Assembly: GCA_964561025.1 (NCBI GenBank)
Contig: CAZLNM010000002.1
Coordinates: 43,235 to 107,234 of the forward strand
From: an uncultured Myxococcales bacterium
Lineage (GTDB): Bacteria > Myxococcota > B64-G9
DNA length: 64,000 nt
Direction: 5' to 3'
Positions 6,876-64,000 of the stretch are shown in pieces. Under the pieces are notes generated by a model. The model saw only the letters and a program-made list of their open reading frames with translations. It searched no databases and was not told the DNA's origin. A program made the position numbers and the translations under genes. Each line of letters starts with the position of its first letter. Within the stretch, counting starts at the first letter, position 1.

Positions 6876-6987
6876 GGGTCCTCCTCTCCTGACAACGTTG
6901 CAGTCTCGCGCAAAGCGCGCCGGGGCGCAAGCTGGGGGCCGAAAAACCTTTGGACCTGCCCGCCGGCCTCGGCTAACATTCCCCGGC

Positions 6988-31576: not shown

Positions 31577-31578
31577 GG

Positions 31579-32364: not shown

Positions 32365-32921
32365 GGGCCCTCCTCGAAGGACAGCCGCACCGCCAGCTCC
32401 GAGGGGTCGGGCGCGAAGCGCTTGCCGCCCAGGCGCACCTCGATGATCTCGGGCACGGGCCCGGGCGGGGGCAGCTCGATCTGGACGGCGCCCGGGGCGG
32501 ATACCACGGTTCGCTTGCGGAAGGTCGGGCCGCGCACGGTGAGGGTGAAGGGCAGGCGCTCGGGCGCGGTGTGGACCTCGAGCCGCAGCGCCCGCACCCG
32601 CTCGGAGTCGGGGAAGCGCAACACCCAGGCGGTCGGGACCGCCAGCCACCCGCCTTGGTGGGCGCTCAAGATGCCGATGCTGGCCTCTCCCAGGAGGGCC
32701 GTGCGCAAGGCCGGGTGCTTTTGCAGCTCCTCCAGGATGAGCGAGCGAACGTCCGCTCCGATGCGCATCCGGTCGCTTCCGCGCAGGGCTTGCGTGACCC
32801 GGAAGATCCGGTCCAGCGGCGGCGTGGCGGCGCCCCAGGCGAAGAAGCCGGCCACGGCGGCGTAGACCAGGATCACCGCCACGAAGCCGAGGCTGGGCAG
32901 GCGTCCCGGGGTGGGCTTCAT
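32361..32921 (-). CDS. Small single-TM protein, unknown function
   Basis: ATG 32921 overlaps the CotH gene TGA (ATGA). TM segment LGFVAVILVYAAVAGFFAW. Confidence 0.55.
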   Translation of the reverse strand: MKPTPGRLPSLGFVAVILVYAAVAGFFAWGAATPPLDRIFRVTQALRGSDRMRIGADVRSLILEELQKHPALRTALLGEASIGILSAHQGGWLAVPTAWVLRFPDSERVRALRLEVHTAPERLPFTLTVRGPTFRKRTVVSAPGAVQIELPPPGPVPEIIEVRLGGKRFAPDPSELAVRLSFEEGP

Positions 32922-35698
32922 GGCGCGCCTCCCGACGCGGCCATCCCCAGGCGGGCGGGAAGTTCGCTCCATGCCCCGAGGCCCAGCACGTCGTAGAGCA
33001 AGCGCGACAGGCCGTGCGCCGGCAGGTGCCGCTCCACCCGGCCGACGGTCAGCGCCTCGGCCGAGGACTTGTCCAGGTCGATCTCCTCCTGGTTGTCCAC
33101 CAGGTAGATGGTCTCGGCGGCGATGCGGCTCTCGCCGGTGTACCACACGTCGCGGCGGTTGACCCGGATGCCGGTGCGGTTTTCGAAAATCAGGCTGTCC
33201 GAAAGCTCCACCCGCGAGGCGTTCTTGGCGAGCAAGCCCACGCGCGAGCGCGCGAGCAGGCAGTCTTGCACCCGCACCCGGCTCTTCTCGCCGGCGGACA
33301 GCGCGTTCCCGCCGCAGCCGATGAGCAGGCTGTCGGCCAGGGAGAGCTCGGCGCTCATGAGGTCCAGGCACTCGTCGCCGCTGTCGCGGATATCGAGGCC
33401 GCGCAGCTCGCCGGACACGAACTCCAGGTCGATGGCGTCGCGCGCCGCCCCCGAGAAACGGCCGCCGTCGATGACCAGTGCCTCGAGGTAGGCCCCGTGC
33501 AACAGGTCCGGCGCCGTGCGGTTCGAGATCATCTCGATCTCCCGTAGCACCACGTCGCGGGTGTCGTGGAGGTTGAGCATTCCGGAGTAATAGCCGAGGT
33601 TGTGCCGGGCGTGCGACCCGCCGATGATGTGCACGTGCTCGAGTCGGGCTCCGGCCGCCGCCGGCCCCTGCACGATCACGCCTCCGAACGGCGCCGCGTC
33701 GAGCGCTTCGATGCGGATGGGCCGCGAGGGCGTGCCGCGGGCAAGCAGCGGGCCCAGGAACACCAGCGACGCCTCGTGCCCGAGACGCAGCGTGGTGCCG
33801 GGCGCGATGGCGACACGCTGGTGGGGTTCGAACACCTTGCCCTCGGGCAGCTCCACCACGCCCGGGCCCAGCGACACCGTCTCGGCCGCGGGGAGGGTCA
33901 ACGCGGCCGGGTGGACCGAGAGCGTCCCGGCGGCCAGGGTGGGGACGTCATCGACCCTGGCCCACGACGGTGACCCCGCCGCCGCCGCGCGCTCGCGGGA
34001 GCGGATCCGGCCCTGGGTGAAGCCGTGCCGGCCCTCGGCCCACAGCTTGGCCGGGCGGCAGTCCGCGCGCACCTCGAAGTCGTACTCGGCGGGCCGGGCC
34101 TGGGCGCTCAACGCCTGCGGCCCGTCGCCGGCGTCCGGGCGCTGGAGGAGCTCGGCGCCCGGAAGGAGCGTGAGCGGCTCGTCCAGCAGGAAGTCGCCGC
34201 CAGGGGTCTCGGGCCCGAGCGGGCGCTCCCGGTACCACACCTGCATGCGCCCGGCGCACCCCGGCGGCCACTCGGCGTGGAACGAGCGCAGCTCGATCCC
34301 CGCCGGCCCCTCCACCCACAGGCGCACGGAAAATCGGCCCTGCCGGAATGGTCCGGGCGGTTCCAGGGCCAGGGGGTTCGCCGCGAGTTCGGCGGCGAGC
34401 GCCGCGTGGCGCTCGGCCAGCGTCACCAGGGCGTTGTCGAGGGCCAGGCCCAGCCGGGACAGGTCCATGGGGCGCAGGATCTTGTCGGTCCCGCCGGGGA
34501 GGGGGGGGAGCTGGTCCGAGGCGCGCCACACCGGATCGGAGAGGAGATCGGGGAGCAGGCCGGTCACCTTTTCCGTCCAGCGGCGCCGCACCTCGTTGGC
34601 GCTGGCCGGGCCCGAGAGCAGACGCCACAGGCTGCGGCCGCGCAGCTCGTTGTACTGCGGGAGCAACGAGAGCCGCAGCCGGAGCGGATCGGCCGAGGAG
34701 GGCCGCCCGGCCGGGCGCTGAAAGCCCCGCAAGGCGCTGGCCACGGGTTCGAACCGGCCGCGGAAGGGATCGAAGTAGAGCTTGTGATTGCGCCGGGCGT
34801 CCCGGCTGCGGATGCCGAGGGCCATCTCCAGCGCCTCCAGCGCGGCGAAGCGCTCGAGGTCGAGCTCCTGGCGGGCGAAGGCGGCGAACTCGCGGTGGCT
34901 GGCGCGCGCCACTCGGTCGAGCAGGCGCTCGAGCTCGCTCTTGTCCTTTTGCTCCTCGGGGGCGCGCCAGGCGATCTTCTTCCAAGCATTGCTCCCGCGC
35001 CACAGATCGCCCGGGTCGCCGGGATCCAGGTTGCCGGAGTACAGGCTCCCCGGGTAGCGGTCGTTCGCGCGCAGCAGCTCCTCGCCGACCTGCTGGGCGA
35101 GGCGCATCACGCCGCGGTCCGCGCCGTTGTGCCGCACCCGCACGAAGGTATGGCGCGCGGTGAGCAGCCCCAGCGAGGCCGCCAGCTCCTGCGCCACCTC
35201 CTCCGCGCCCAGACGGGGCGACGGTTCGGGGACGAGGTTGAACACCCGACATCCCAGGACGAGATCGCCGCGCGAAAGCTGCACCTTCACCGGCCGCTTG
35301 GGGTTGAGGCGAAAGCCGCGCTCGCCGCGCGCGCGCACCATCACCGGGTGGCGCTGGCCGTCGTGTTCGAGGAGGGCCGACACGTAGGGGCGCCCTCGGG
35401 GGATGGCCAGCGACGCCTCCAGCCGGTCCAGCTCGGCGTTGTCGAACAGCAAGTGGATCTGGGGCAGCCGCGGCGGCTCCGGCGGGGCGGGCTGCAACAG
35501 GCGGCGCACGTCGGCGCGCAGCGTGTCGTGCAGCCAGAGCTGAAAGTCCTCGAGGCCCGGCGCGGGACCCGGGACGAGCTCGCGGAAGGCGCTCATGGAG
35601 GCGTGGGCGCGCCAGGCGTACCACAGGGCGAACAGCCCCCCCGGCAGGCAGATGAGCAGCGCCGACAGCGCTCGCATGCGGTAGATCCGGCGCAGCAT
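32918..35698 (-). CDS. CotH kinase-family protein with N-terminal TM and C-terminal parallel beta-helix repeats
   Basis: CotH-like region (HLLFDNAELDRL..., VRVRHNGADRGVM, RNHKLYFDPFRGRFEP). C-terminal part of about 300 aa shows right-handed beta-helix periodicity. Confidence 0.7.
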   Translation of the reverse strand: MLRRIYRMRALSALLICLPGGLFALWYAWRAHASMSAFRELVPGPAPGLEDFQLWLHDTLRADVRRLLQPAPPEPPRLPQIHLLFDNAELDRLEASLAIPRGRPYVSALLEHDGQRHPVMVRARGERGFRLNPKRPVKVQLSRGDLVLGCRVFNLVPEPSPRLGAEEVAQELAASLGLLTARHTFVRVRHNGADRGVMRLAQQVGEELLRANDRYPGSLYSGNLDPGDPGDLWRGSNAWKKIAWRAPEEQKDKSELERLLDRVARASHREFAAFARQELDLERFAALEALEMALGIRSRDARRNHKLYFDPFRGRFEPVASALRGFQRPAGRPSSADPLRLRLSLLPQYNELRGRSLWRLLSGPASANEVRRRWTEKVTGLLPDLLSDPVWRASDQLPPLPGGTDKILRPMDLSRLGLALDNALVTLAERHAALAAELAANPLALEPPGPFRQGRFSVRLWVEGPAGIELRSFHAEWPPGCAGRMQVWYRERPLGPETPGGDFLLDEPLTLLPGAELLQRPDAGDGPQALSAQARPAEYDFEVRADCRPAKLWAEGRHGFTQGRIRSRERAAAAGSPSWARVDDVPTLAAGTLSVHPAALTLPAAETVSLGPGVVELPEGKVFEPHQRVAIAPGTTLRLGHEASLVFLGPLLARGTPSRPIRIEALDAAPFGGVIVQGPAAAGARLEHVHIIGGSHARHNLGYYSGMLNLHDTRDVVLREIEMISNRTAPDLLHGAYLEALVIDGGRFSGAARDAIDLEFVSGELRGLDIRDSGDECLDLMSAELSLADSLLIGCGGNALSAGEKSRVRVQDCLLARSRVGLLAKNASRVELSDSLIFENRTGIRVNRRDVWYTGESRIAAETIYLVDNQEEIDLDKSSAEALTVGRVERHLPAHGLSRLLYDVLGLGAWSELPARLGMAASGGAP

Positions 35699-51469: not shown

Positions 51470-53203
51470 GTGAGCGCACCTGCCATTGCACAAGCGATTG
51501 CCGGGTCCGGCGGCGCGTCGAGCCAGCGTCGGCGGAGGTTGTTTTTGTCCGCCGCCCTGGTGCTGGTCATCTCCAGCAGCGCGTGGGTGGTGGGCCAGCT
51601 CTGGTACGGCAACCTCGGCGTGGCGCTGTTCTTCGCGGCGGTGTCGGGGCTGGCGATCGTGCTGCTCCGTTTTCGGGAGCGGCTGGGGCTGGACCGGACC
51701 GGCTTTCTGCTAACGGCCATGCTGCTCCTGGTCATCGGCGCAGGCGCGGTGGTCGGCGGCGGCCTGGCCGGGACGAACGCCTGCCTGTTCATCACCATCC
51801 CGGTGGGCGCGCTCAGCATGTGCGAGCGGCGCGGCCTGTGGTGGGTGCTGCCGACCTTGCTGTGCGTGGGCGGGATGGTCCTCCTCCATCGGAGTGGCTT
51901 CGTGTTCCCCAACCTCATCCCGCCGGAGCAGCGCGCGCTGGACGCGGCGCTCACCTGGGTCACCAGCCTGCTGGTCATCGCCTTCTTGGCCTGGACCTAC
52001 GAGCGGACCTACCTGCGCGCGGGCCGTGAGCTTCGCGCGGCGCGCGAGGCGGCCGAGCGGGCGGCGAGCGCCAAGGCGGAGTTCGCCGCCCGGGTGAGCC
52101 ACGAGGTGCGCACGCCCCTGCACTCGCTGCTGGGGTTGATGGAGATGATGGAGACAGAGGACGATCCCGCCACCCGGGAGGCTCAGGCCACCCAGGCCCA
52201 GACGACCTCGCGCATGCTCCTTCACATCCTGGAAGACCTGCTGGACCTGTCGCGGGCGGAGTCCGGCGCGATCGAACTGCGCCGGGAGCCGTTCTCGCCG
52301 GCGCGTACTGTGGAACAAGTGCTCGAGGTCCTGTCCGCCCGGGCCGCCGATCGGGGGAACCGGCTGCTGGGGCACGTGGCGCCGGAGGTGCCGGCCTGGG
52401 TGCGGGGGGACGGTGGCCGGCTGCAGCAGGTGTTGCTCAACCTGGTGGGAAACTCCCTCAAGTTCACCGAGAACGGCCGGGTGGAGATCCGGGTCGAGCG
52501 GGACGGGGCGGACGCCGCAGGCGAGCGGCTGCGCTTCGAGGTTCAAGACAGCGGCGTGGGAATCGAGCAGGACGAGCTCGCCAAGGTCTTTCTCCCGTAC
52601 TACCAGGCCGGGCCGGAGGCGAGCCGCCGGCAAGGGGCCGGCCTGGGCCTGGCCATCAGCCAACGTCTGGTGGAGGCGATGGGCGGACGGCTGCGAGCCG
52701 AGTCCGAGCCGGGCCGCGGCAGCCGCTTCTACTTCTCCTTGACCTTCCCGCCGCTGGCGCGGCCGCCCGAGCCGCCGCTGCCTGGGGTGGCACCGGTCGA
52801 TTCGGATCTGGCCGGGATGCGAGTGCTCTTGGCCGAGGACGACGAGACCAACCGCCGGCTCACCGTGCTCATACTGGAGCGCCTGGGGTGCCGGGTCACC
52901 GCGGTGGGCGACGGGAAGACGGCCGTGGAGGCGCTCCAGCGCGACGCCTTCGACGTTGTGCTCATGGACATCCAGATGCCCGTCATGGACGGCGCCGACG
53001 CCACCCGGCGCATGCGCGAGCTTCTGGCGAGCGGCGCGATATCCCGCCTGCCGCCCGTGGTGGCCATGACCGCCTACACCGCGTACACGGACGAGTCGCT
53101 ACGGGAGCGGCTGGGGATGGCCGGCGTGCTGGTCAAGCCGTTCCAGGGCACGGACCTGCACAAGGTGTTGCTCCGCTTTCGGCCCGGCGGAGGCGCGGCA
53201 TGA
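51470..53203 (+). CDS. Membrane hybrid sensor histidine kinase / response regulator
   Basis: Multi-TM N-terminus. H-box VSHEVRTPLHSLLG. HATPase_c (NLVGNSLKFT, DSGVGI, GAGLGLAIS). Receiver (VLLAEDDETN...LMDIQMPVMDG...VKPF). Confidence 0.85.
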   Translation: MSAPAIAQAIAGSGGASSQRRRRLFLSAALVLVISSSAWVVGQLWYGNLGVALFFAAVSGLAIVLLRFRERLGLDRTGFLLTAMLLLVIGAGAVVGGGLAGTNACLFITIPVGALSMCERRGLWWVLPTLLCVGGMVLLHRSGFVFPNLIPPEQRALDAALTWVTSLLVIAFLAWTYERTYLRAGRELRAAREAAERAASAKAEFAARVSHEVRTPLHSLLGLMEMMETEDDPATREAQATQAQTTSRMLLHILEDLLDLSRAESGAIELRREPFSPARTVEQVLEVLSARAADRGNRLLGHVAPEVPAWVRGDGGRLQQVLLNLVGNSLKFTENGRVEIRVERDGADAAGERLRFEVQDSGVGIEQDELAKVFLPYYQAGPEASRRQGAGLGLAISQRLVEAMGGRLRAESEPGRGSRFYFSLTFPPLARPPEPPLPGVAPVDSDLAGMRVLLAEDDETNRRLTVLILERLGCRVTAVGDGKTAVEALQRDAFDVVLMDIQMPVMDGADATRRMRELLASGAISRLPPVVAMTAYTAYTDESLRERLGMAGVLVKPFQGTDLHKVLLRFRPGGGAA

Positions 53204-54519
53204 GCGGGTCTGTGCAGGTCCGCCACCGGCGCCTCTCGGCGGTGTTCGAGCGCATCGACGGCTTTCTGTCGCTCTCGGAGCGCGACCTGGACATCGAGTC
53301 GCGCCGGCGCGTGCGCCTGCTGAACTGGGGGGGCGCGGTCCTGGCCACGCTGCTTCTGTTCTGGCTGGTCAACCAGATCGCCTACACCGCCTGGACCCTG
53401 GCCGCCTGGCAGGGCGGTTTGCTGCTGGCGACCATCGGCCTGATGGCGGCGGTGCGCCGGGCCGCGCGGTTTTCACTGTGGGCCCACCTCATGTGCCTTA
53501 CGATGGTGGGCGCGGCCTTCAGCGCGGCGATGTACTCCGGCGGGCTCACCGCGGCCAACCTTTCTCTTCTGTTGGCCGTGCCGGTGTGCGCGGTGGTGCT
53601 GGCGGGGGCCGGCGGCCTGTGGTGGACCCTGGTGATGGTGGGAGGAGTGGCCTGGATGGGGTATGCCGAGGCGCACGGCGCGACCTTCCCCTATCTGACC
53701 CCGGAGGAATGGCGCCCGTTCGACGCCGTCATGACCTGGCTCACCTCGTTCGTCGGCATCACGCTGGTGTTCGCCTACAACCACGCCGCTTGCGCCCGGG
53801 CGGAGCGGGATCAGGAGGCGGCCCTGGCCGAGGCCCGCGCGGTGTCGGAGAGCAAGACCCGCTTCCTGTCCTCTCTCAACCGCGAGATCCGCGAGCCGTT
53901 GCACCACATCCTGGGGATCATGGTGCTGCTCAAAGAAGAGCCCTCGACGGAGCGGCGCCGCGAGCTGGGCCAGGAGGCGCGCCGCATCGGGCAGGCCCTG
54001 GTGGCCGGCGTGGAGGAGATCCTGCGGCTGGCCCGGGACGAGCACCTGCTCGAGATCCAGCGCGAGCGCCTGGCCGGTGTCCCGCGGTTGGAAGGCGCCT
54101 CTCCCGCCGCGAGCGCCCCGGGGTTGCGAGAGCCGACGCGGGTTCTGGTGGCGGAGGACGATCCGGTCGGCCGGCGCTTGCTGGCGCGCATCCTCACCGA
54201 CCTGGGTTGCGAGGTGGTGGAGGCGAGCGACGGCCAGGCGGCGCTGCGGGCCCTGCGCGATGGTGGGTTCGACCTGGCCCTGGTGGACTGCGGGTTGCCG
54301 GAGATGGATGGCCTGACCCTGGCGCGCGAGCTGCGGCGGTCCGAGGTCGGGGCCTCGGCCGAGCGCGTCGAGCTGTTCGGAATGTCGGCGGAGCGCGGTC
54401 CGCAGCAAGAGGCCGCCTGCCGCGAGGCGGGCATGGACGGGTTCTTGCCCAAGCCGTTCGGACGGCGGGAGATCGAGGCGTTGTTGAATCGCGCAAGGCA
54501 AGGCGCGATCCCGGGTTGA
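53200..54519 (+). CDS. Paralogous multi-TM sensor module + His-less DHp-like helix + receiver domain (no ATPase domain)
   Basis: The ATG overlaps the upstream TGA (ATGA). The TM region shares GGLWW.L, P.L.PE and DA..TW.TS blocks with 51470-53203. The H-box position reads LNREIREPL (Arg in place of His). Followed directly by receiver VLVAEDDP...LVDCGLPEMDG...PKPF. Confidence 0.75.
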   Translation: MSGSVQVRHRRLSAVFERIDGFLSLSERDLDIESRRRVRLLNWGGAVLATLLLFWLVNQIAYTAWTLAAWQGGLLLATIGLMAAVRRAARFSLWAHLMCLTMVGAAFSAAMYSGGLTAANLSLLLAVPVCAVVLAGAGGLWWTLVMVGGVAWMGYAEAHGATFPYLTPEEWRPFDAVMTWLTSFVGITLVFAYNHAACARAERDQEAALAEARAVSESKTRFLSSLNREIREPLHHILGIMVLLKEEPSTERRRELGQEARRIGQALVAGVEEILRLARDEHLLEIQRERLAGVPRLEGASPAASAPGLREPTRVLVAEDDPVGRRLLARILTDLGCEVVEASDGQAALRALRDGGFDLALVDCGLPEMDGLTLARELRRSEVGASAERVELFGMSAERGPQQEAACREAGMDGFLPKPFGRREIEALLNRARQGAIPG

Positions 54520-54569: not shown

Positions 54570-55790
54570 ATGGAACTTTCGTTCTTGTCCTCGTTGGTGG
54601 TGGAGAACGCCAGCAAGGTGGTGCTGGTGGTCCTGGACGGGTTGGGCGACCTGCCCGGGCCCGAGGGAAAGACCGCCCTGGAGGCGGCCGCGACTCCCAA
54701 CCTCGACCGGCTGGCCGAGGAAGGCGTGTGCGGCTTCCACGATCCGGTGGCGCCGGGCATCACCCCGGGCTCCGGCCCGGCCCACATCGCCCTGTTCGGT
54801 TACGATCCGCTGCGCTTCACCATCGGCCGGGGGGTGCTGGACACCGCCGGCACCGCCTTCGAGTTCGCCGCCGGAGACCTGGCCGCGCGCATCAACTACG
54901 CCACCATCGGCCCGGACGGTCTCATCCGCGATCGGCGGGCGGGCCGGATCGCGGACGCCGAAGGCCTGCGGGTCACCGAGCGCCTGGCCCGCGCCATCCG
55001 CGACATCGACGGGGTCCGGGTGCTGTTCCAGCACGTCAAGGAGTACCGCGCCGCCGCGGTGCTCCGCGGGGCCGAGCTGGAGGCCGGGCTCAAGGACAGC
55101 GATCCGCAGAAGGAGGGGCTGCCGCCGCTCCCGGTCGAGCCCGTTGCGGCCGAGCCCTCGCCCAAGGCGCTGCGCGCCGCGCGCCTGGCCAACGCCCTCA
55201 TCGAACGCGCCCGGACCGTCCTGGCCGATGAGCCCGCCGCCAACTTCGTGATGCTGCGCGGCTTCGATCTCTACGTGCCGCTGCCGGACTTCTGCAAGCT
55301 GTACCGCTGGCGGGCCGCGGCCGTGGCCGCCTACCCCATGTACAAGGGGGTGGCGCGGCTGGCCGGCATGCGCGTGGTGGAGGAGGGCCAGAGCACCCTG
55401 GAGCAGGAAATCGCGCTGGTGGAGCGGGAGCTTCCCCGGACCGACTTCTTGTTTTTGCACGTCAAGAAGACCGACTCCGCCGGCGAGGACGGCAACTTCG
55501 CCGCCAAGGTCAAGGTGCTCGAGGAGTTCGACCGGCTGGTGCCGCGCCTTGTCGCGCTGCGGCCCGAGGTGCTGTGCGTGACCGGCGATCACTCCACACC
55601 CTGCGCCATGCGCAGCCACTCCTTCCACCCGGTGCCGCTGCTCATCCGGGGCCAGAACGTGCGGCGCGATGGGGCGCGGGCCTTCTCCGAGAGCGCCTGC
55701 CTCGGGGGCGGGCTGGGACGCATCCGCGCCAGCGAGCTCATGGCGCTGCTGCTGGCCCACGCCGGCCGGCTGGCCAAGTTCGGGGCCTGA
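54570..55790 (+). CDS. apgM: Cofactor-independent phosphoglycerate mutase, archaeal-type (ApgM family)
   Basis: Start trimmed to ATG 54570 (GGGAGGTCAC SD). VVLDGLGD, PGSGPAH, HVKKTDSAGEDGN, and TGDHSTP motifs. Confidence 0.85.
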   Translation: MELSFLSSLVVENASKVVLVVLDGLGDLPGPEGKTALEAAATPNLDRLAEEGVCGFHDPVAPGITPGSGPAHIALFGYDPLRFTIGRGVLDTAGTAFEFAAGDLAARINYATIGPDGLIRDRRAGRIADAEGLRVTERLARAIRDIDGVRVLFQHVKEYRAAAVLRGAELEAGLKDSDPQKEGLPPLPVEPVAAEPSPKALRAARLANALIERARTVLADEPAANFVMLRGFDLYVPLPDFCKLYRWRAAAVAAYPMYKGVARLAGMRVVEEGQSTLEQEIALVERELPRTDFLFLHVKKTDSAGEDGNFAAKVKVLEEFDRLVPRLVALRPEVLCVTGDHSTPCAMRSHSFHPVPLLIRGQNVRRDGARAFSESACLGGGLGRIRASELMALLLAHAGRLAKFGA

Positions 55791-55826
55791 ATTCCTTTGC
55801 CATCGGTGGCGCGGGGTGTTATCTTC

Positions 55827-55852: not shown

Positions 55853-56299
55853 ATGGCCAGCATTCCCAAGGAATCGATCGAGCGGCTGCTGTTCTTGCGG
55901 CGCGAGATGGACCGCTTGTTTCGGGATTTCTTCCACGCCGACTCTGACGAGGGCGCGGCGGTGGACCTGGCCGCCGACATTCCGGTGGACGTGTTCGAGA
56001 CCCCGGAGGAGATCGTCATCGAGGTCGAGCTGCCCGGCCTGCGGCGCGAGGACCTGGAGCTGTCGGTCCTGCGTGACATCCTGATCATCGAGGGGCGGAA
56101 ACCGCGGCCGCAGCCGCCCTCGGATTCCCGCTACCTGTGCATGGAGCGCTCCTATGGCGCCTTCCGCCGGGTGGTGGAGCTGCCCGGGGCCGGGGACATG
56201 CAGCACCTCAAGGCGCGTTTCCAGGCCGGCGTGCTCACGGTGCGCCTGCCGCGCATCCGCGAGCGCCGCGGCCAGAAACGCAAGGTGGCCATCGAGTGA
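55853..56299 (+). CDS. Hsp20 / alpha-crystallin family small heat-shock protein
   Basis: Start trimmed to ATG 55853. VDVFETPEEIVIEVELPGLRREDLELSV, ERSYGAFRRVVELP, and GVLTVRLPR. Confidence 0.9.
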   Translation: MASIPKESIERLLFLRREMDRLFRDFFHADSDEGAAVDLAADIPVDVFETPEEIVIEVELPGLRREDLELSVLRDILIIEGRKPRPQPPSDSRYLCMERSYGAFRRVVELPGAGDMQHLKARFQAGVLTVRLPRIRERRGQKRKVAIE

Positions 56300-56327: not shown

Positions 56328-57023
56328 ATGGTCCAGATCAACCTCGAGCAGCGGGAAATCACCCTCAAGATCGTCTACTACGGCCCCGCCCTGTCGGGGA
56401 AGACCACCAACCTGCAGGCCATCCACCAGCTGATGGACCCCTCGGTGCGCGGGCGGTTGATGGTGCTGGACACCTCCGACGACCGCACTCTGTTCTTCGA
56501 CCTGATGCCGGTGTTCTTCCGCAGCCGCTCCGGCTTCTCGGTCAAGGTCAAGCTGTTCACCGCCCCCGGGCAGGTCATGCACAACTCCACACGGCGGGTG
56601 GTGCTGCAGGCCGCGGACGGGATCGTGTTCGTGGCCGACTCCCAGCGCTCCATGACGCGGGCCAACAACGACTCCTGGCGCGACATGGCCCACAACCTCA
56701 AACAGAACGGGCTGAACGTGCAGGAGCTGCCGGTGGTCATCCAGTTCAACAAGCGCGATCTTCCCGACGTGCGCTCGGACGAGGAGATCGACGAGGTGGC
56801 CCGGCGCGGCCGGGAGCCGGTGTTCAAGGCGGTGGCCATCCGGGGCGAGGGGGTGATGGAGACCCTGGCCGGCTTGCTGCGCTTCACCTGGCGCACCCTG
56901 GACGCCCGGCACGGCCTCTCGAGCAAGCTGCACATCGAGGAGGAGGAGTTCATCACCAGCCTGCTGCGCCTGTCGCCCGCTGCGGGCCTGGCGGCTCCGG
57001 CCCCGGGGAGGTCCGCGCCATGA
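56328..57023 (+). CDS. MglA-family Ras-like small GTPase (paralogue, with a C-terminal extension of about 35 aa)
   Basis: INLEQREITLKIVYYGPALSGKTTNLQ (P-loop), DDRTLFFD (switch I Arg), TAPGQV (switch II Gln), and QFNKRDL (G4). Aligns colinearly with M. xanthus MglA from residue 1. Confidence 0.85.
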   Translation: MVQINLEQREITLKIVYYGPALSGKTTNLQAIHQLMDPSVRGRLMVLDTSDDRTLFFDLMPVFFRSRSGFSVKVKLFTAPGQVMHNSTRRVVLQAADGIVFVADSQRSMTRANNDSWRDMAHNLKQNGLNVQELPVVIQFNKRDLPDVRSDEEIDEVARRGREPVFKAVAIRGEGVMETLAGLLRFTWRTLDARHGLSSKLHIEEEEFITSLLRLSPAAGLAAPAPGRSAP

Positions 57024-58453
57024 ACCCGTTCCCCGCCGCCGGCGGCCGCGATCTGTCCTCGGCGCTGCAGCGCAACTTCTCGCTGTCGGAGCTGCTGGAC
57101 GTGGCGGTGTTCCGCGAGGTGTGCGAGTCCTACGCCGACCTGTTCCAGATCGGCTTCCGCATCCTGGACCGGGCGGGGGAGAAGCTCATCGACACCAAGG
57201 GCGAGTCCGCCGACTACTGCGCCTACCTGTTCAACTTCCCCTCCGGCAAGTCGCGCTGCACCGCCGAGGTCACCGCCCTGCGTCAGATGGAGCTGCCCGG
57301 CGCCCAGCCGGTGGTGCACGATTGTTTCACCGGCCTGCGCTACCTGATCATGCCCATCCTGTACGAGGGCGATCTGATGGGCCGCATCCTGTACGGGCCC
57401 TACCTGCCGGCCGAGGGCCGGCCGCTGGCCCTCACCCCCGAGGCGATGGGGGAGAAGTTCAACCCGGACATCGCGGCCCGGCTGCTGCTCCGGGTACGGC
57501 GGGTCCCCCAGGCGGCGGCGCAGAAGGTGGTGCGGCACCTGGCGCAGGTGATCGAGGTGATGTTGCACACCGGCTACAAGCAGGCGCTCACCTCGCGCAT
57601 GCACGTGGAGGCGGTCAGCGCCAGCTTCAACGAGCTGCAGGACAAGAACCGCGTGCTGCAGGAGTCCTTCGAGCGGCTCAAGGAGCTGGACCGGCTCAAG
57701 TCCAGCTTCCTGGCCACCGTGTCGCACGAGCTGCGCACGCCGTTGACCTCGGTGATCGGTTACAGCGAGATGCTGCTGGAGGGGCTGGCCGGCGCCCTGT
57801 CGCAGGAGCAGACCGACTACGTGCGCACCATCATGGAGAAGGGCGAGAACCTGCTCTCGCTCATCACCAGCATCCTGGACTTCTCCAAGGTCGAGTCCGG
57901 CAACCTGCGCCTGAACCTGGCGAGCTGCAACCTGGGCGAGATCGTGCGGGCCGCGGCCACCACCGTGCTCCCCATGGCCCGCAAGCAATCCGTCGAGGTG
58001 GTGTTGAAGGTGGGCGAGAACCTGCCCTCGCTGGTGGCGGACGGCGACAAGATCCGCCAGGTGCTGGTGAACCTCCTGGGCAACGCGGTCAAGTTCAACC
58101 GCAAGGGCGGGCGGGTGGAGCTGGAGATCGTCAGCGCCCGCCTGCCGCGGCGCCAGCCGACGGGCGCCGACGGTCTGCCCGAGGCGCTGGCCCAGACCGA
58201 GGAACCCGTGGTGCTGGTCACCGTCCGCGACACCGGCATCGGCATCCCGCAGGACAAGCTGCATCGCGTCTTCGACTCGTTCTACCAGGTGGACGGCTCC
58301 TCGACCCGGGAGTACGGGGGCACCGGCCTGGGCCTGGCCATCGCCAAGAGCTTCGTGGAGGCCCACGGGGGCACCATCCAGGTGGAGAGCGAGGTGGGCA
58401 AGGGCAGCGTGTTCCGCTTCGTGCTCCCGGTGGAGCGTCCGACCCAGGGGTGA
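57020..58453 (+). CDS. Cytoplasmic histidine kinase with N-terminal PocR-like sensory domain
   Basis: The ATG overlaps the GTPase TGA (ATGA). PocR-like Cys pattern (ADYCAYLF...KSRCTAEV...HDCFTGLRYLIMPILYEGDLMG). H-box VSHELRTPLTSVIG. HATPase_c (NLLGNAVKFN, DTGIGI, GTGLGLAIA). Confidence 0.8.
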   Translation: MNPFPAAGGRDLSSALQRNFSLSELLDVAVFREVCESYADLFQIGFRILDRAGEKLIDTKGESADYCAYLFNFPSGKSRCTAEVTALRQMELPGAQPVVHDCFTGLRYLIMPILYEGDLMGRILYGPYLPAEGRPLALTPEAMGEKFNPDIAARLLLRVRRVPQAAAQKVVRHLAQVIEVMLHTGYKQALTSRMHVEAVSASFNELQDKNRVLQESFERLKELDRLKSSFLATVSHELRTPLTSVIGYSEMLLEGLAGALSQEQTDYVRTIMEKGENLLSLITSILDFSKVESGNLRLNLASCNLGEIVRAAATTVLPMARKQSVEVVLKVGENLPSLVADGDKIRQVLVNLLGNAVKFNRKGGRVELEIVSARLPRRQPTGADGLPEALAQTEEPVVLVTVRDTGIGIPQDKLHRVFDSFYQVDGSSTREYGGTGLGLAIAKSFVEAHGGTIQVESEVGKGSVFRFVLPVERPTQG

Positions 58454-58456
58454 GGC

Positions 58457-58831
58457 ATGCCAGACAAGAAACGCATTCTGGTGGTGGACGACGACGCGGA
58501 CATCGTGCTCATGATCCAGCGCATCCTGGAGAAGTCCGGCTTCGAGGTGGCGCGCACCACCGAGGGGGCCGAGGCCATCCGCATGATCGAGCAGGAGAGC
58601 TATGACCTCATCCTGCTGGACATCATGATGCCCGGCATCGACGGTTTCGAGGTGGCCCGCAGCGTGCGGCGCAACGAGAAGGGGGTGCGGCCCCCGGTGG
58701 TATTCGTCACCGCGCGGGACGACTCCGAGTCCATGCGCGAGGGGTTCCGCTCCGGCGGAACGGTATTCTTGGCCAAGCCGTTCACCGCCAGCCAGCTGCT
58801 GCGCATCGTCAACGCCATGCTCAACCGCTGA
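58457..58831 (+). CDS. Stand-alone response regulator receiver
   Basis: ILVVDDDADI, ILLDIMMPGIDG, FVTA, and AKPF. 3 nt after the kinase stop. Confidence 0.9.
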   Translation: MPDKKRILVVDDDADIVLMIQRILEKSGFEVARTTEGAEAIRMIEQESYDLILLDIMMPGIDGFEVARSVRRNEKGVRPPVVFVTARDDSESMREGFRSGGTVFLAKPFTASQLLRIVNAMLNR

Positions 58832-58894
58832 TGAGCGGGCCCGCCGCGTTCGGGAAAGGAGAGCGCCCTGACCGTCCTTTCGCTGCTCCCGTGG

Positions 58895-59992
58895 TTGCTC
58901 CCCGGCCCGCTCCTGGGCGCGCTGTTGTGCCTGTGGCTGGTGCCGGGCGAGGGGGCCGCATCGGCCGCGGTGCTGTGCGGGCTGCTGCTGCTGGCCATGG
59001 GTGTGCTGGCCGCCGTGGTGGACCTCGCGCGGCGGCGCCGGGTGCGGGAAGTGGCGCGGCTGCGGGAGGCCTCCGCGCGCACGGGCCGCGAGGCGAGCGA
59101 GGGATGCGAGCGGCTGAACGAGCTGGCGCGGCGGGCGAACGCCTCCGCCGGGGAGATCGCCACGGGCCTGGAGCGCGTCACCGGCGGCGCGGAGCTGGAG
59201 GGCGACCTGGTGCGCAAGGCCTCCACCCTGGTGGCCGAGGTGGCCCGCAGCATGTCGCACACCTCGCGCGCGGCCGAGGACGCGGCCCGCTCTTCGGCCG
59301 AGGCCAGCCGGGTGGCCCTGTCCGGCGGCCAGCTGGCCACCACCGCGCTCGACAAGATGCGAGGCGTGTTCGAGCAGGTGGAAAAGACCGCGCGCCGCAT
59401 GGTCGAGTTCGGCGAGCGCACCCAGGAGATCGGGGCCATCGTGCGGGTGATCACCGAGGTGGCCCAGCAGACTCACCTGCTGGCCATCAACGCCACCATC
59501 GAGGCGGCCCGGGCCGGCGAGGCCGGGCGGGGTTTCGCGGTGGTGGCCGAGGAGATCCGCCACCTGGCCGAGAACACCTCGCGCTCGGCGGAGCGCATCG
59601 CCCGCATCGTCGAGGAGGTGGCCCAGGGGAGCGCCGAGGCCGTCACCGCCGCCCAGGTCAGCACGCGGCAGCTGGGCGAGGGCCGCGATCAGCTGAACGC
59701 CATCGCGGACTCACTGCGGAACATCGTGGCCGCGGTGACCGCCGGCAGCGACCGGGTGCAGATCATCAACCGGCTGGCGCAGGAGCAGATGGCGGGCGCC
59801 GAGCAGACCATCAAGGCCTTCGAGAACCTCTCCCAGGTGGCCGGCCAGAACCTCTCCGCCTCGGGGGCGGTGTTGCAGGCGGTCGAGGCGCAGAGCGAAA
59901 ACTTGTTCGAGATCACGCGCCAGGCGGAGACGTTGCAACGGCTGGCCGGGGCGCTGGCGGCCGCGAAGGACGCGGAGGGAGGAAGCCGGTGA
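58895..59992 (+). CDS. Short methyl-accepting chemotaxis protein (two TM helices, no periplasmic domain)
   Basis: Signalling hairpin [45 protein letters not shown]. Start is uncertain: TTG 58895 is the first classical start, while an in-frame CTG at 58868 has AAGGAG 6 nt upstream. Confidence 0.8.
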
Positions 59993-60408
59993 CGGATTCC
60001 GGTTCGAGCGAGGCGCGGCCCGCGGATCGGGTGCTGATCTTCCGTCTGGGCGGGGGACGCTTCGGCATTCGGCTCGCCGAGGTGGGCGAGGTGCTGCGGC
60101 TGGACCGGGCGCCGCTTCCGGTGCCGGGGGCGCCCGCGTGGCTGGCCGGCATCCTCAACCACCACGGGCACGTGGTGCCGGTGCTGCGCCTGGACGGCGT
60201 CCTGGGCGTGGCGCCCTCCACCGGCGAACAGGCCATCCACGTCGATCTGGGTGGTGAGCCCGCCGCCCTGCTGGTGGACGGGGTGGACTGCCTGGAGAGC
60301 GTGCGGCCCGAGGGGCCGAACCTGCAGGGCCGGCAGCGCGCCTGGCACGGCGATCGGCTGCTCGAGCTGCTGACGGTTCCCGAGCTGTTGCGGGCGGCGG
60401 GCGTTTGA
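59989..60408 (+). CDS. cheW: CheW-like coupling protein
   Basis: GTG 59989 overlaps the MCP TGA (GTGA). [22 protein letters not shown]...[15 protein letters not shown]. Confidence 0.8.
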
Positions 60409-60454
60409 CTCGGGCGCGGGCCGGAGGATACACTGGCGCCGCAAGGAGGGCACC

Positions 60455-60826
60455 ATGGCCAGCCGGGTGATGATCGTGGACGACGCGGTTTTCATGCGCA
60501 ACACCCTCAAGGAGATCTTCCAGGGCGCCGGGTACGAGATCGCCGGCGAGGCCGCCAACGGCGTGGAGGCGGTGGAGAAATACCAGGAGCTTAGGCCCGA
60601 CCTCATCTCCATGGACATCGTCATGCCCTTCAAGAACGGCATCGAGGCCACCCGCGAGATCCGCAAGGCCGATCCTCGGGCCGTGGTGATCATCTGCAGC
60701 GCCCTGGGGCAGGAGTCTCTGGTGACCGAGGCCATCGAGGCCGGCGCCACCGACTTCATCGTCAAGCCCTTCCGGCCGGAGAACGTGCTGCAGGTGGTGC
60801 AGAAGGCCCTGGCCGCCCGGGCCTGA
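60455..60826 (+). CDS. cheY: CheY-like response regulator
   Basis: AAGGAGGG SD. VMIVDDAVFMR, ISMDIVMPFKNG, ICSALG, and FIVKPF. Confidence 0.9.
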   Translation: MASRVMIVDDAVFMRNTLKEIFQGAGYEIAGEAANGVEAVEKYQELRPDLISMDIVMPFKNGIEATREIRKADPRAVVIICSALGQESLVTEAIEAGATDFIVKPFRPENVLQVVQKALAARA

Positions 60827-60852
60827 TCCGCCCTCGATCTGGAGTTCGCCTC

Positions 60853-62751
60853 GTGGACATGTCGGCCTACAAGCCGCTCTTTCTGAGCGAGGCCGCCGAA
60901 CACCTCGACAACCTGGAAAAGGATCTGCTGGCGCTCGAGCAGCACCCGGCGGATGCGGAGCGCGTCCACGAGGCCTTTCGCCATCTGCACTCCATCAAGG
61001 GCATGGCCGGCTCCATGGGCTACGGTGCCCTGAGCGCGCTGGCGCACGGGCTGGAGGACCTGCTGGTTCCGTTCCGGCAGGAGAAACGGCCCTTGAACGC
61101 CGAGGTGGTGGAGGTTCTGCTGCGCGGTCTCGACCAGCTGCGCCGGCAGCTCGGTCAGGCGGCGGAGGACCGGGCCATCGAGCCGGTCGGCGAAGGACTG
61201 CTCCAGGCCATCGGCCGTCTCCAGACGCGTGCCACCCCGGCGCGGGAGGCGCCGGAGCCGAAGGCGCCGGAGCCGGAGGCGCTGCGCAGCCTGCAGGTGG
61301 AGGTGGACATCTCGCCCGACAGCCAGCTCCCGGCCGCCCGCGCCTTCCTGGTGTTCCGGCGGCTGCAGGAGGCCGGCCGGGTGGTGCGCTGCACCCCCTC
61401 TCCGGAGGAGCTGCGGCAGGGGATCCTCCCCGGGCGAGTGCTGCGTGTGTGGCTGGAGAGCCGCGAGGGGTTGCCCGAACTCCGGCGCCGCCTGGATCTC
61501 GCCGACGTCGCCGCGGTGCGCTGGCTGCCGGCCGACGAGAAGGCCCCGGCGCCCGCCGCGGCCCCGTCCGCGGCGCCGAATCCATCCGCGGCCGCGCCCA
61601 CTGTCCGGGTGAGCGCCGAGTTGCTGGACTTCTTCGTGGACGCGGTCGGCGAGCTTCTGGCGCAGCGCTCGCACCTCGAGGAGTTGGCCGAGCGCCTGGG
61701 CTCCGGGGAACTCTCGGGCTCGGTGCGGGCCCTGTCCCAGATCGTGCGGCGGTTGCACGACCGGGTCATGGAGGTGCGGCTGGTGCCGGTGTCTCTGCTC
61801 ACCGATCGACTGCCGCGGGTGTGCCGGGACATCGCGGGGAGCCGGGGCAAGAAGGTGCGTTTCGCCATCGAGGGCCACGAGGTGCCCATCGATCGGGCCC
61901 TGGTGGAGGCACTGGACACGCCGCTCTTGCACCTCTTGCGCAACGCGCTGGACCACGGGATCGAGCCGCCCGAGGAGCGGCGCGCGCGCGGCAAGCCAGA
62001 GGAGGGCTCGCTGCGCATCGCGGTGCGCCGGCGCCACGATCGAGTGCTGATGGAGGTGAGCGACGACGGGCGCGGCATCGATCCGGCCCGGGTGTTGGAG
62101 CGCGCCCGCTCCCTGGGCCTGGTGCCCCCGGGCGAGCCGCTCGATGCGGCTGGAGCGCTGGAGCTCGTCTTCGCGCCGGGGTTCAGCACGCGCGAGGGGG
62201 CCGGCGAGGTCTCTGGCCGCGGCGTCGGGTTGGACGTGGTGCGCACCACCCTGACCCGGCTGGGTGGACGGGTGTCGGTCCAGTCGCGGCCCGGGGAGGG
62301 GACGACCTTCGTGCTCGATCTGCCGCTCACCCTGGCCGTGCTCCAGGTGCTGCTGGTGGAGAGCGCGGGCCGGCTGTTGGCCCTGCCCGCCTCGCGGGTG
62401 CTGCGGGTGTTGCCGCTCCGGCCGGAGAATGTCGCGGTGCGTATGCGGGAGTCGCGGCTCGGCGAGCCCGGCGCGGATTTCGCCTATGGGGATCTTTCGG
62501 CGCTTCTGCGGGAGCCGTCCGGCGAGGTGTCGCGGGAGGCGGTGGTGATCGGTGACGGCGAGCAAGGCCGGCTGGCGCTGGGCGTGCATCGGGTGGCGGG
62601 CCACCGGGAGGTGGTGCAGAAACCGCCCGGCAGCCTGCTTAGGCGCGCCGGGCCATTCGCCGGGACCACCGTGCTGGGGGACGGCCGGCCGGTGCTCATC
62701 CTGGATCTGGATCAGCTCATGGAGCGGTTCGCCACCCGAGGAGGAGCATGA
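60853..62751 (+). CDS. cheA: Chemotaxis histidine kinase CheA
   Basis: Hpt FRHLHSIKGMAGSMG. N box LLHLLRNALDHGIE, G1 DDGRGID, G2 GRGVGLDVV. C-terminal CheW-like P5 domain. No obvious P2 domain. Confidence 0.9.
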   Translation: MDMSAYKPLFLSEAAEHLDNLEKDLLALEQHPADAERVHEAFRHLHSIKGMAGSMGYGALSALAHGLEDLLVPFRQEKRPLNAEVVEVLLRGLDQLRRQLGQAAEDRAIEPVGEGLLQAIGRLQTRATPAREAPEPKAPEPEALRSLQVEVDISPDSQLPAARAFLVFRRLQEAGRVVRCTPSPEELRQGILPGRVLRVWLESREGLPELRRRLDLADVAAVRWLPADEKAPAPAAAPSAAPNPSAAAPTVRVSAELLDFFVDAVGELLAQRSHLEELAERLGSGELSGSVRALSQIVRRLHDRVMEVRLVPVSLLTDRLPRVCRDIAGSRGKKVRFAIEGHEVPIDRALVEALDTPLLHLLRNALDHGIEPPEERRARGKPEEGSLRIAVRRRHDRVLMEVSDDGRGIDPARVLERARSLGLVPPGEPLDAAGALELVFAPGFSTREGAGEVSGRGVGLDVVRTTLTRLGGRVSVQSRPGEGTTFVLDLPLTLAVLQVLLVESAGRLLALPASRVLRVLPLRPENVAVRMRESRLGEPGADFAYGDLSALLREPSGEVSREAVVIGDGEQGRLALGVHRVAGHREVVQKPPGSLLRRAGPFAGTTVLGDGRPVLILDLDQLMERFATRGGA

Positions 62752-63515
62752 TGCGGCCCGAGGCGATCCGACAACTGCTGGCCGAGGTCGCCGCCGGCCG
62801 CCTGACGCCGGAGCAGGCGCAGGAGCGCCTGGCGCTGCTCCCCTTCGAGGACCTGGGGTTCGCCCGGGTGGACCACCACCGCGCGCTGCGCGGGGGATTC
62901 CCCGAGGTGATCTTCGGCCAGGGAAAGACCGTCGAGCAGATCCTGGCCATCGCCGAGCGCATCGTGGCCCAGGGGGGGCCGCTGCTGGCCACCCGCTTGT
63001 CCCCCGAGGCCGCGCGAAGCCTCGTAGAGCGTTTTCCCCAGGGAAAGTTCCACCCCGCTTCTCGCGCCTTCGCCTTCGCGCCGCGACCCGTCGAGACCGT
63101 CGGGGCGGGCATGATCTTGATCGTGGCCGCCGGCACCGGCGATCTGCCGGTGGCCGAGGAAGCCGCCGTGACGGCCGAGCTGATGGGACAACAGGTGGAG
63201 CGGCTGAACGACGTGGGCGTGGCCGGCCTGCACCGGCTGCTCTCCGCCACCGAGCAGCTGCGGCGGGCCGCGGTGATAGTGGTGGTGGCCGGGATGGAAG
63301 GAGCCCTGCCGTCGGTGGTGGCCGGCCTCACCAGTTGCCCGGTGATCGCCGTACCCACCAGCGTGGGTTATGGCACCGGGCTGGGCGGGTTCGCCGCCCT
63401 CCTTTCCATGTTGAACGCCTGCGCTCCGGGGGTGTTGGTGGTCAACATCGACAACGGTTTCGGCGCGGGCTTCGCGGCCTCCCTGGTCAACCGGCGGCGG
63501 GAGGAGGCGGGATGA
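62748..63515 (+). CDS. larB: Nickel-pincer cofactor biosynthesis protein LarB (PurE/AIR-carboxylase-like)
   Basis: The ATG overlaps the cheA TGA (ATGA). DLGFARVDHHRALRGGFPEVIFGQGKT, VAAGTGDLPVAEEA, VAGMEGALPSVVAGL, and VIAVPTSVGYG. Confidence 0.8.
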   Translation: MMRPEAIRQLLAEVAAGRLTPEQAQERLALLPFEDLGFARVDHHRALRGGFPEVIFGQGKTVEQILAIAERIVAQGGPLLATRLSPEAARSLVERFPQGKFHPASRAFAFAPRPVETVGAGMILIVAAGTGDLPVAEEAAVTAELMGQQVERLNDVGVAGLHRLLSATEQLRRAAVIVVVAGMEGALPSVVAGLTSCPVIAVPTSVGYGTGLGGFAALLSMLNACAPGVLVVNIDNGFGAGFAASLVNRRREEAG

Positions 63516-64000
63516 GGACGCTGCACCTCGACATGATCTCCGGCATCGCCGGCGACATGATGCTGGGCGCCCTGGTGCAGCTCGGCTTCCCCCTGGAGCG
63601 CCTGCGGCAGGCGCTCGACGCCATGGGACTCGGCGGCATCGGCGTGCGGGTCGAGCCGGCCGCGCCCAGCGGCGTATCGGCCCTGCGCTTTTCGGTGGAC
63701 GCGCCTGGCGAGGAGACCGCCGAGCGCTCCTGGGCCGACATCCGCCGCCTGCTGTCGTCCGCCGGACTGCCGCCCGGCGCGCGAGAGCGGGCCGAGGCCA
63801 TGTTCGCGCGCCTGGCCGAGGCCGAGGCGCGGGTGCACGGCACCACCCCCGAGCGGATCCATTTTCACGAGGTGGGTGCCGCCGACTCCATCGCTGACAT
63901 CGTCGGCTGCGCCCTGGCGCTGGACGCGCTTGGACCGGAGATCATCAGCGCCTCGACCCCCGTGGTCGGGCGGGGAACGGTTCAGAGCCGCCACGGGGTG
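63512..64000 (+). CDS. larC: Nickel insertion protein LarC (5' part; runs off the window end)
   Basis: The ATG overlaps the larB TGA (ATGA) and follows GGAGGAGG. MRTLHLDMISGIAGDMMLGALVQLG and HFHEVGAADSIADIVG. Open to the last base of the window. Confidence 0.8.
   Translation, partial: MRTLHLDMISGIAGDMMLGALVQLGFPLERLRQALDAMGLGGIGVRVEPAAPSGVSALRFSVDAPGEETAERSWADIRRLLSSAGLPPGARERAEAMFARLAEAEARVHGTTPERIHFHEVGAADSIADIVGCALALDALGPEIISASTPVVGRGTVQSRHGV

Follow-up and report, generated by a model that had tools for sequence, protein, structure and literature searches.

A predicted SofG-type GTPase and PocR histidine kinase encoded beside a Dif-like chemosensory core in an uncultured Myxococcales bacterium

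The window analysed in this study is a 64,000-nucleotide stretch of DNA from an uncultured Myxococcales bacterium (GenBank assembly GCA_964561025.1, contig CAZLNM010000002.1, positions 43,235 to 107,234). Seven genes lie head to tail on its + strand between 56328 and 62751, in a region with a G+C content of ~70%. They encode an MglA-family small GTPase, a histidine kinase (HK) with a PocR domain, a stand-alone response regulator (RR), an MCP (methyl-accepting chemotaxis protein), CheW, CheY and CheA. Domains were assigned by Pfam and NCBIfam searches on the window proteins, and for all seven the calls agree with those of an earlier note made on this DNA from its letters alone. Gene frames between 58.6 and 62.6 kb are the Pfam-verified frames, and junctions were read directly from the sequence. 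With fair but not strong confidence, we read the locus as a compacted form of an old Myxococcota neighbourhood which houses two signalling units: a SofG-type GTPase with its HK (and, here, an RR), and a Dif-type chemosensory core. The seven genes, with the basis of each call, are the following (TM, transmembrane):

56328-57023, + strand: MglA-family small GTPase of the SofG clade, 231 aa (phmmer against solved structures)
57020-58453, + strand: PocR-HisKA-HATPase_c histidine kinase (Pfam)
58457-58831, + strand: receiver-only response regulator (Response_reg, E=8e-30)
58868 (CTG) or 58895 (TTG) to 59992, + strand: DifA-type MCP with two TM helices (Pfam MCPsignal, TM prediction)
59989-60408, + strand: CheW, a DifC-type coupling protein (Pfam CheW, E=2e-17)
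60455-60826, + strand: CheY, a DifD-type single-domain receiver (Pfam, identity to dif-type CheYs)
60853-62751, + strand: CheA, DifE-type, organised as Hpt-P2-dimerisation-HATPase_c-CheW with no fused receiver (Pfam)

The junctions are tight. The TGA of the GTPase gene overlaps the ATG of the HK gene (ATGA at 57020-57023), three nucleotides (GGC) separate the HK stop from the ATG of the RR gene, and the MCP and CheW genes overlap through GTGA at 59989-59992, all as previously noted. The gaps between cheW and cheY and between cheY and cheA are 46 and 26 nt long, respectively. In the stretch 58829-58870, the RR gene ends in two consecutive in-frame stops (TGATGA), and the MCP gene shares the reading frame of the RR gene. 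The MCP probably starts at the CTG of 58868, which is preceded 6 nt upstream by AAGGAG; the TTG of 58895 has no such motif. This CTG start is missed by open reading frame (ORF) listers restricted to ATG, GTG and TTG.

In phmmer searches against solved structures, the window GTPase matched MglA of Thermus thermophilus (3t12, E=1.8e-50) and MglA of Myxococcus xanthus (5ymx, E=3.6e-46). Its G3/PM3 motif is T78-A-P-G81-Q82, and TxxG in place of DxxG is a feature of the MglA family (PMC3000849). R53, T78, Q82 and the NKxD motif are invariant in 82 relatives; Arg53 corresponds to the intrinsic arginine finger and Gln82 to the catalytic residue, with the roles described in PMC4316618. The protein is 56% identical to the Myxococcus SofG orthologues versus 43% to M. 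xanthus MglA. In a neighbour-joining tree, every kinase-linked GTPase, the 239-aa Myxococcus proteins among them, fell into one clade with the window protein. The sister of this clade was formed by 12 loci lacking a kinase, and the MglA proteins of M. xanthus and T. thermophilus were the outgroup. Beyond the ~195-aa MglA core, there is a conserved C-terminal extension of ~25 aa (about residues 192-218) that MglA does not have.

A protein search revealed a dense family of ~230-aa proteins from uncultured Myxococcota, with 60-97% identity. A genome scan, performed on one genome per species, gave 80 loci, including representatives in cultured Myxococcus, Corallococcus, Cystobacter, Anaeromyxobacter, Polyangium, Enhygromyxa and Plesiocystis. 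The Myxococcus orthologue (239 aa) falls in the same 90% cluster as AAL56599.1, 'MglA-like protein [M. xanthus DK1622]', which has been described as 'MglA2' without an MglB partner (PMC3000849). SofG is itself a 239-aa orphan Group 1 MglA of M. xanthus (PMC4316618). No Robl_LC7 gene, that is no coupled mglB within four genes, was detected in the window, nor any roadblock gene in the 10 kb flanking each side in the six relatives annotated with Pfam (loci L004, L007 and L090-L093), which bears out the earlier remark that the window has no MglB gene. As there is no coupled mglB, the window GTPase is an orphan, as SofG is. By its sequence, the GTPase is a SofG-type paralogue of MglA, and not MglA proper. 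In M. xanthus, SofG binds the bactofilin BacP and localises PilB and PilT (PMC4085708, PMC11016934). As to its GTPase-activating protein (GAP), a passage of PMC11016934 citing Kanade 2021 gives MglB as the GAP of SofG, and a passage of PMC4316618 citing Bulyha 2013 gives no MglB stimulation of SofG.

Codon 21 of the GTPase gene (56388-56390) encodes Ala at the position of Ras Gly12 and MglA Gly21. Ala21 is present in 51/70 kinase-linked relatives and in 12/12 kinase-less sister loci; Gly21 is limited to Cystobacterineae (18 loci, including the Myxococcus SofG orthologues) and to MglA. The proteins of the kinase-less sister clade are 214-225 aa long (L024, L037, L039, L040, L048, L051, L054, L056, L059, L060, L063 and L083). 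The six of these loci that were inspected, judged from translated ORF starts, display methylmalonyl-CoA mutase-like and MeaB-like genes upstream, and RibBA-like and MoxR/VWA-like genes downstream. The C-terminal extension was considered as specific evidence for kinase binding and rejected, because this HK-less sister clade has the same extension.

The most constant element around the GTPase gene is the HK gene. Of the 82 loci on which adjacency was counted, 69 are SofG-clade loci with sufficient sequence downstream. An HK gene was found directly downstream of the GTPase gene in 69/69 of them, with an overlap of 4 nt in 54 and a PocR domain seen by tblastn in 61; loci L090-L093 add four more adjacencies. 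Loci with this pair come from Myxococcia, Polyangia, Nannocystineae and Bradymonadia, and all other neighbours vary. GTPase and kinase are inherited together and probably translated together. The window kinase has no hydrophobic segment and would be soluble. At least 95% of 66 orthologues keep its H236, N-box and G1/G2 boxes (N355, D404xGxG and G434xG436). Both the GTPase and the kinase look active.

Fusion proteins were also searched for, exhaustively over cluster representatives. P0279 (934 aa) associates an MglA-like GTPase with GAF, PAS and HATPase_c domains, and its 90% cluster has five members, spread over nine contigs of independent origin. P0140 (665 aa), a singleton, is a SofG-like GTPase followed by PocR, HisKA and HATPase_c. 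Many MglA-like representatives carry long C-terminal parts, and many further representatives, of 300-800 aa, have no recognised C-terminal domain. According to the published survey, Group 1 small-GTPase neighbourhoods 'vary widely' and a kinase link is described only for the conservon (PMC4316618). In the papers searched, none dealt with MXAN_6702 or with PocR together with MglA, and neither the invariant SofG-HK adjacency nor MglA-like GTPase-HK fusions were found described. The kinase following sofG, MXAN_6702 by gene count, is the likely partner of the GTPase, a role that we infer from sequence comparison.

Downstream of this pair, the chemosensory genes resemble the dif operon of M. xanthus. 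The minimal two-TM MCP reported by the earlier note was recovered: two N-terminal TM helices are predicted, separated by a loop of ~7 residues, and MCPsignal is the sole Pfam domain. Alignment with DifA orthologues was essentially gap-free, with no heptad-scale indels over the full-length signalling domain. In M. xanthus only two receptors are of class 44H; DifA is one of them and has two TM helices (PMC3945109). The 44H receptors that define Dif-like clusters have a periplasmic loop 3-10 aa long (PMC2577667). The window MCP displays a ~47-aa deletion where the orthologues of L029, L057, L091 and L093 have HAMP, and no HAMP match was detected at E<=0.01. This deletion is common to L004 and not to L093 (L093:12376-13662, same gene order, HAMP kept); TM2 runs straight into the signalling bundle.

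The window CheY shares 68-73% identity with the CheY proteins of dif-type clusters in Myxococcia. Compared with the DifD specificity set F13, M14, M17, D20, I21 (PMC4671073), it has F13, M14, T17, E20 and I21; the CheY of the Corallococcus cluster has all five DifD residues. The RR encoded after the kinase retains an acidic pocket and associated residues (D11/D12, D55, K106, read from the sequence), and with the intact boxes of the kinase it makes up the residue set of a classical two-component system; at the DifD specificity positions it has D15, I16, M19, R22 and I23. Because these are not DifD-like, we presume that this RR belongs to the PocR kinase and not to CheA. An RR is found at this position in the window clade, in L017 (Bradymonadia), in L091 and in L093, and is absent in Myxococcia and Polyangia. 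As for CheA, in the rows of PMC3945109 for FrzE, DifE and CheA3-CheA5 only DifE shows a P2 domain, and DifE is among three non-hybrid CheAs (PMC9040617).

The absence of adaptation enzymes from the window, as claimed earlier, was confirmed: a Pfam scan of its ORFs, including 40 further predicted ORFs (100 aa or longer) from 1-54.5 kb, gave no CheB_methylest, CheR, CheC, CheD, CheX or Robl_LC7 match. For the CheC-type phosphatase DifG and the YjbR-domain protein DifB, the window gave no match in Pfam or in tblastn searches started from orthologues of DifB and of DifG/CheC; L057 and L091 have CheC, and Myxococcus has DifB. Since the dif operon natively has no CheB or CheR (PMC3945109 Table 3; PMC2577667), being 'adaptation-less' is the normal state of the pathway. 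The Che genes appear as positional orthologues of the Dif pathway, because they have the same flanks, sofG-HK upstream and larB-larC downstream, as in Anaeromyxobacter and L091.

The gene order was then compared across Myxococcota. In Myxococcus sp. Y35 (L029), genes for a PilT-like ATPase of 369 aa, a PilT-like ATPase of 590 aa and a GNAT protein on the opposite strand precede the GTPase-HK pair, which overlaps by 4 nt. After the HK come genes for an NYN protein, an unknown protein, a di-haem oxidoreductase, a repeat protein and ThiL, and then MCP(HAMP), YjbR (DifB) and CheW (Pfam-checked). The Myxococcus order is sofG, HK, six genes, then difA onward. In M. xanthus, MXAN_6706/6705 are PilT paralogues (PMC13584747), MXAN_6704 is a GNAT and difA/C/E are MXAN_6696/6694/6692 (bioRxiv 10.64898/2026.08.28.747804), and difD is MXAN_6693 (PMC9040617). 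With dif at MXAN_6696-6691, the L029 order fits the published numbering, so that by gene count the GTPase is MXAN_6703 and the kinase MXAN_6702. We take SofG to be MXAN_6703, in line with its 239-aa length, the AAL56599.1 cluster and the gene count.

In Anaeromyxobacter oryzae (L057), only thiL intervenes between the two units: the order is GTPase-HK-ThiL-MCP(HAMP)-CheW-CheY-CheA(P2)-CheC/X-LarB-LarC, all Pfam-verified. The fullest form seen is L091, on a 1.9-Mb metagenomic contig, with GTPase-HK-RR-ThiL-MCP(HAMP)-CheW-CheY-CheA-CheC-LarB-LarC. The window, L004, L010, L011, L013 and L093 share the order GTPase-HK-RR-MCP-CheW-CheY-CheA-LarB-LarC, the L004 DNA being 93% identical to the window over 17.7 kb. 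Synteny in related genomes is therefore real, and since the order recurs in other species-level genomes it is not due to chance. Downstream of larC, L004 and L093 continue with glgB and not with che genes; no cheB or cheR is hidden beyond larC. Thus, the window is a compacted variant of the array, without ThiL, DifB, DifG and the HAMP domain of the MCP. The larB-larC genes directly follow a dif-type cheA or cheC in L004, L057, L091 and L093, and larB is probably not part of the signalling system. Likewise, thiL is kept between kinase and MCP in many lineages, and no functional reason is apparent for thiL or larBC. Other arrangements were also observed. In two close relatives the cassette itself is rearranged: in L007 (12589-20708), cheW is followed by guanylate cyclase, ABM and Fe-ADH genes and then by an inverted glgB-larC-larB-cheA block, and in L012, ~3.5 kb are inserted between cheW and cheY. 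In L091, the GTPase gene is preceded by a DEAD helicase gene, immediately upstream of which (6673-7990) are genes for a receiver and for a CheX/CheC-domain protein.

The neighbouring genes and the promoter-like matches of the window are listed below.

54570-55790, + strand: apgM (97% identity to the Pfam-annotated L004 gene)
55853-56299, + strand: hsp20, a conserved upstream neighbour in the window clade (Pfam HSP20, E=1.8e-17)
62748-63515, + strand: larB (NCBIfam LarB, E=1.7e-85)
63512-64000, + strand: larC, 5' part, running past the window end (93% identity to L004 LarC, Pfam Ni_insertion)
55797-55825, + strand: sigma-70-like match upstream of hsp20, TTGCCA-17-TATCTT (consensus match only)
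60405-60434, + strand: sigma-70-like match in the 46-nt cheW-cheY gap, TTGACT-18-TACACT (consensus match only)

The upstream neighbours, apgM and hsp20, are those given by the earlier note; the GTPase gene is preceded by hsp20 or hsp20-lon in L004, L007, L011, L012 and L090. On the downstream side, the first gene is larB and not larC. The cheA TGA overlaps the larB ATG (ATGA at 62748-62751) and larC then follows. The small gaps reported within the seven genes were correct, but the tight + strand run is wider than these genes: it extends from 51470 (hybrid HK, HisKA-REC, apgM, hsp20) to the window end. Tight spacing by itself is weak evidence, because the unrelated apgM, hsp20, larB and larC are packed equally tightly. 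The match at 55797-55825 is a possible start of a transcript that includes the GTPase gene, and that at 60405-60434 a possible internal promoter for cheY-cheA. Sigma-70-like matches numbered 2 in 13 kb, versus 0.3 expected from shuffles, and these sites before hsp20 and in the cheW-cheY gap hint at more than one transcript. Terminator-like matches numbered eight, all of them inside genes and none intergenic, and an Rfam scan of 50-64 kb gave no RNA family.

Further upstream, positions 51470-54519 contain two overlapping genes with a similar multi-TM N-terminal module, a pair also present in L004. They encode a HisKA-HATPase_c-REC hybrid kinase (577 aa) and a HisKA-REC protein without ATPase domain (439 aa). 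The - strand carries, at 30881-35698, a cluster made up of DUF4956, a protein with a VTC domain, an ORF of unknown identity and a CotH-kinase-domain protein of 926 aa.

Compared with the described systems, the first unit shares with M. xanthus SofG its clade, R53/T78/Q82/NKxD, the C-terminal extension, the downstream PocR kinase with its 4-nt overlap and the vicinity of dif. It differs by an identity of 56%, by Ala21 instead of Gly, by apgM and hsp20 as upstream neighbours in place of the PilT paralogues and GNAT, and by the RR gene after the kinase gene. The second unit shares with M. xanthus Dif a two-TM MCP whose periplasmic loop is tiny and whose signalling domain is collinear with that of DifA (class 44H), CheW, a single-domain CheY, a CheA with P2 and without fused receiver, and the absence of CheB and CheR; its flanking genes are those found in Anaeromyxobacter. 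In contrast to M. xanthus Dif, it has no DifB, no DifG and no HAMP in the MCP, and its CheA is shorter (632 aa, versus 857 aa for DifE). The Dif-like clusters of Geobacter also contain a class 44H two-TM MCP with a loop of 3-10 aa, CheA, CheW and CheY (PMC2577667), but they include CheR, CheC and CheD, none of which is found in the window.

Several other explanations of the locus were weighed. The seven genes could form a single self-contained and undescribed pathway, as the earlier note proposed, in which the GTPase, translated together with a kinase and a receiver of its own, would be built into an adaptation-less chemosensory core as its input or output. Such a pathway would account for the overlaps and very small gaps, for the same seven-gene order in L004, L010, L011, L013 and L093, and for the lack of nearby CheB, CheR and Roadblock genes. 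We nonetheless find it quite unlikely. Its wiring had been presented as unmatched by any described system, but its parts are orthologues of the SofG GTPase and of the Dif (Che2) operon, both already described. Moreover, the two halves are separable in evolution: Polyangia retain the GTPase-HK pair but no Che genes, in Myxococcus six unrelated genes stand between the halves, and in L007 and L090 the array reaches only cheW, the L007 cheA being inverted ~10 kb away. The tight packing also takes in apgM, hsp20, larB and larC, and a promoter-like site lies between cheW and cheY. Self-containment is not established either, as MglB, encoded elsewhere in M. xanthus, is the reported GAP of the orphan SofG. 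Altogether, that interpretation holds for the real synteny and the absence of hidden adaptation genes; the system itself is better described as SofG plus Dif. At the other extreme, the arrangement might reflect inherited gene order only, with GTPase, kinase and Che genes as unrelated neighbours and no cooperation between GTPase and kinase. The equally conserved thiL, larB, larC and hsp20, which have no obvious signalling link, and the long-range synteny of Myxococcota in this region are what such inheritance would give. It is an unlikely explanation in our view, set against the 69/69 GTPase-HK adjacencies in several classes (54 with the 4-nt overlap) where other neighbours vary, the existence of independent GTPase-kinase fusion proteins, and the conservon precedent of an MglA-family GTPase interacting with kinase-associated partners (PMC4316618).

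The conservon of actinobacteria (CvnA-D of Streptomyces), in which kinase, roadblock protein, CvnC and GTPase form one complex, offers a parallel to the GTPase-kinase pair, since it also has an MglA-family GTPase encoded beside a histidine kinase; a further likeness is that, in most lineages, the pair includes no response regulator. It comprises the roadblock protein CvnB, CvnC, a membrane-bound kinase with HAMP and an LPxR motif at its C terminus, and a Group 2 GTPase without arginine finger (PMC4316618). The window has no roadblock (CvnB) or CvnC homologue, its kinase is soluble with PocR instead of membrane-bound with HAMP, and its GTPase is of Group 1 and keeps R53. On these roadblock/CvnC, kinase and arginine-finger grounds, membership of the conservon family is very improbable and was rejected. 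Finally, the GTPase might be the polarity switch MglA of this organism, wired to a Frz-like reversal pathway, as the strong similarity to solved MglA structures could suggest. The family is the same, and in MglA/MglB/RomR-RomX and Frz a small GTPase is likewise tied to receiver-domain proteins and to a chemosensory system in motility control. But the window GTPase is another paralogue, being closer in identity to the SofG orthologues and in one clade with them, with the SofG-type C-terminal extension and no adjacent mglB. The chemosensory genes are of Dif type, and the hallmarks of Frz are absent, namely a CheA fused to a receiver, FrzF/FrzG (CheR/CheB) and a cytoplasmic receptor of the FrzCD type. 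Having failed the sequence, tree and Frz-hallmark tests, this explanation is barely credible and was discarded. The MglA/MglB/RomR/Frz system to which the locus had been compared is thus the wrong reference, because the GTPase is a member of the SofG clade, the order of the Che genes follows that of Dif, and sofG and dif are already neighbours in Myxococcus.

We therefore return to the two-unit reading, SofG-type GTPase-HK(-RR) next to a Dif-type core. In the first unit, a GTPase gene would be translationally coupled to that of a soluble PocR kinase, with a cognate single-domain receiver following in the window lineage, and GTPase and kinase would act as a physical pair. Either the GTP-bound GTPase would gate the output of the kinase, directed to the adjacent RR where the receiver is kept, or the kinase would sense a cytoplasmic ligand through PocR and control the GTPase cycle. 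A GAP encoded elsewhere, which in M. xanthus would be MglB, would probably still be needed for GTP hydrolysis. In the second unit, made of a DifA-like MCP, DifC/CheW, DifD/CheY and DifE/CheA, the signal would pass from the MCP through CheW/CheA to CheY; CheA might also address a receiver encoded elsewhere, as DifE does with EpsW, and CheY might serve as a phosphate sink, as DifD does (PMC4671073). Both units may converge on pilus and exopolysaccharide (EPS) control. Dif of M. xanthus regulates EPS downstream of type IV pili (T4P), without a CheB or CheR of its own (PMC3945109; bioRxiv 10.64898/2026.08.28.747804), and PMC5544727 ascribes to PilB a signalling role. A functional tie between the two units is plausible, at well below an even chance, because L091 and the window clade place both in one tight run, and both act on T4P-dependent behaviour in M. 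xanthus.

Some observations weigh against this reading. Housekeeping thiL and larB-larC are equally faithful neighbours in the same array, so that conserved order need not mean shared function. In Myxococcus, Corallococcus and Archangium, the HK gene lies 1 to more than 8 kb away from difA, with unrelated genes in the interval, and in Polyangia no Dif module lies within 10 kb of GTPase-HK. As the MCP has no HAMP and the cluster neither DifB nor DifG, the system may behave differently from M. xanthus Dif. The GTPase cycle may also differ, because Ala21 stands where Myxococcus SofG has Gly, and G21V slows hydrolysis in MglA (PMC3000849). The fusion P0140 might be an artefact caused by a frameshift at the ATGA overlap, and any role of the kinase MXAN_6702 is, so far, purely inferred.

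Taken by itself, the ordinary reading of the locus corrects the annotation: the GTPase is SofG-like and not MglA, and the Che core is of Dif type, natively without adaptation enzymes. A further step can be proposed tentatively, and we hold it to be possible more than probable: the SofG-type GTPase and the PocR kinase would form a GTPase/two-component module undescribed in the papers searched, a Group 1 MglA counterpart of the conservon, ancestral to Myxococcota, which would link a cytoplasmic small-molecule signal to T4P polarity and, via Dif, to EPS. The sofG-HK pair and dif were probably once a single array, which would fit an axis running from SofG to PilB/PilT, then to Dif and EPS. In M. 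xanthus, T4P signalling to Dif for EPS control has been described as incompletely understood (bioRxiv 10.64898/2026.08.28.747804). According to a 2014 survey, no cognate GAP of SofG had been found, and the restriction of SofG to one subpolar patch is unexplained (PMC4085708, PMC4316618, PMC11016934). SofG positions the pilus motors PilB and PilT at a pole and its regulators are poorly defined. The new point is that the invariant GTPase-HK pairing nominates one genetically tractable kinase as a candidate partner of SofG in M. xanthus. If the proposal is true, this kinase, MXAN_6702, would be the missing regulator or effector of SofG.

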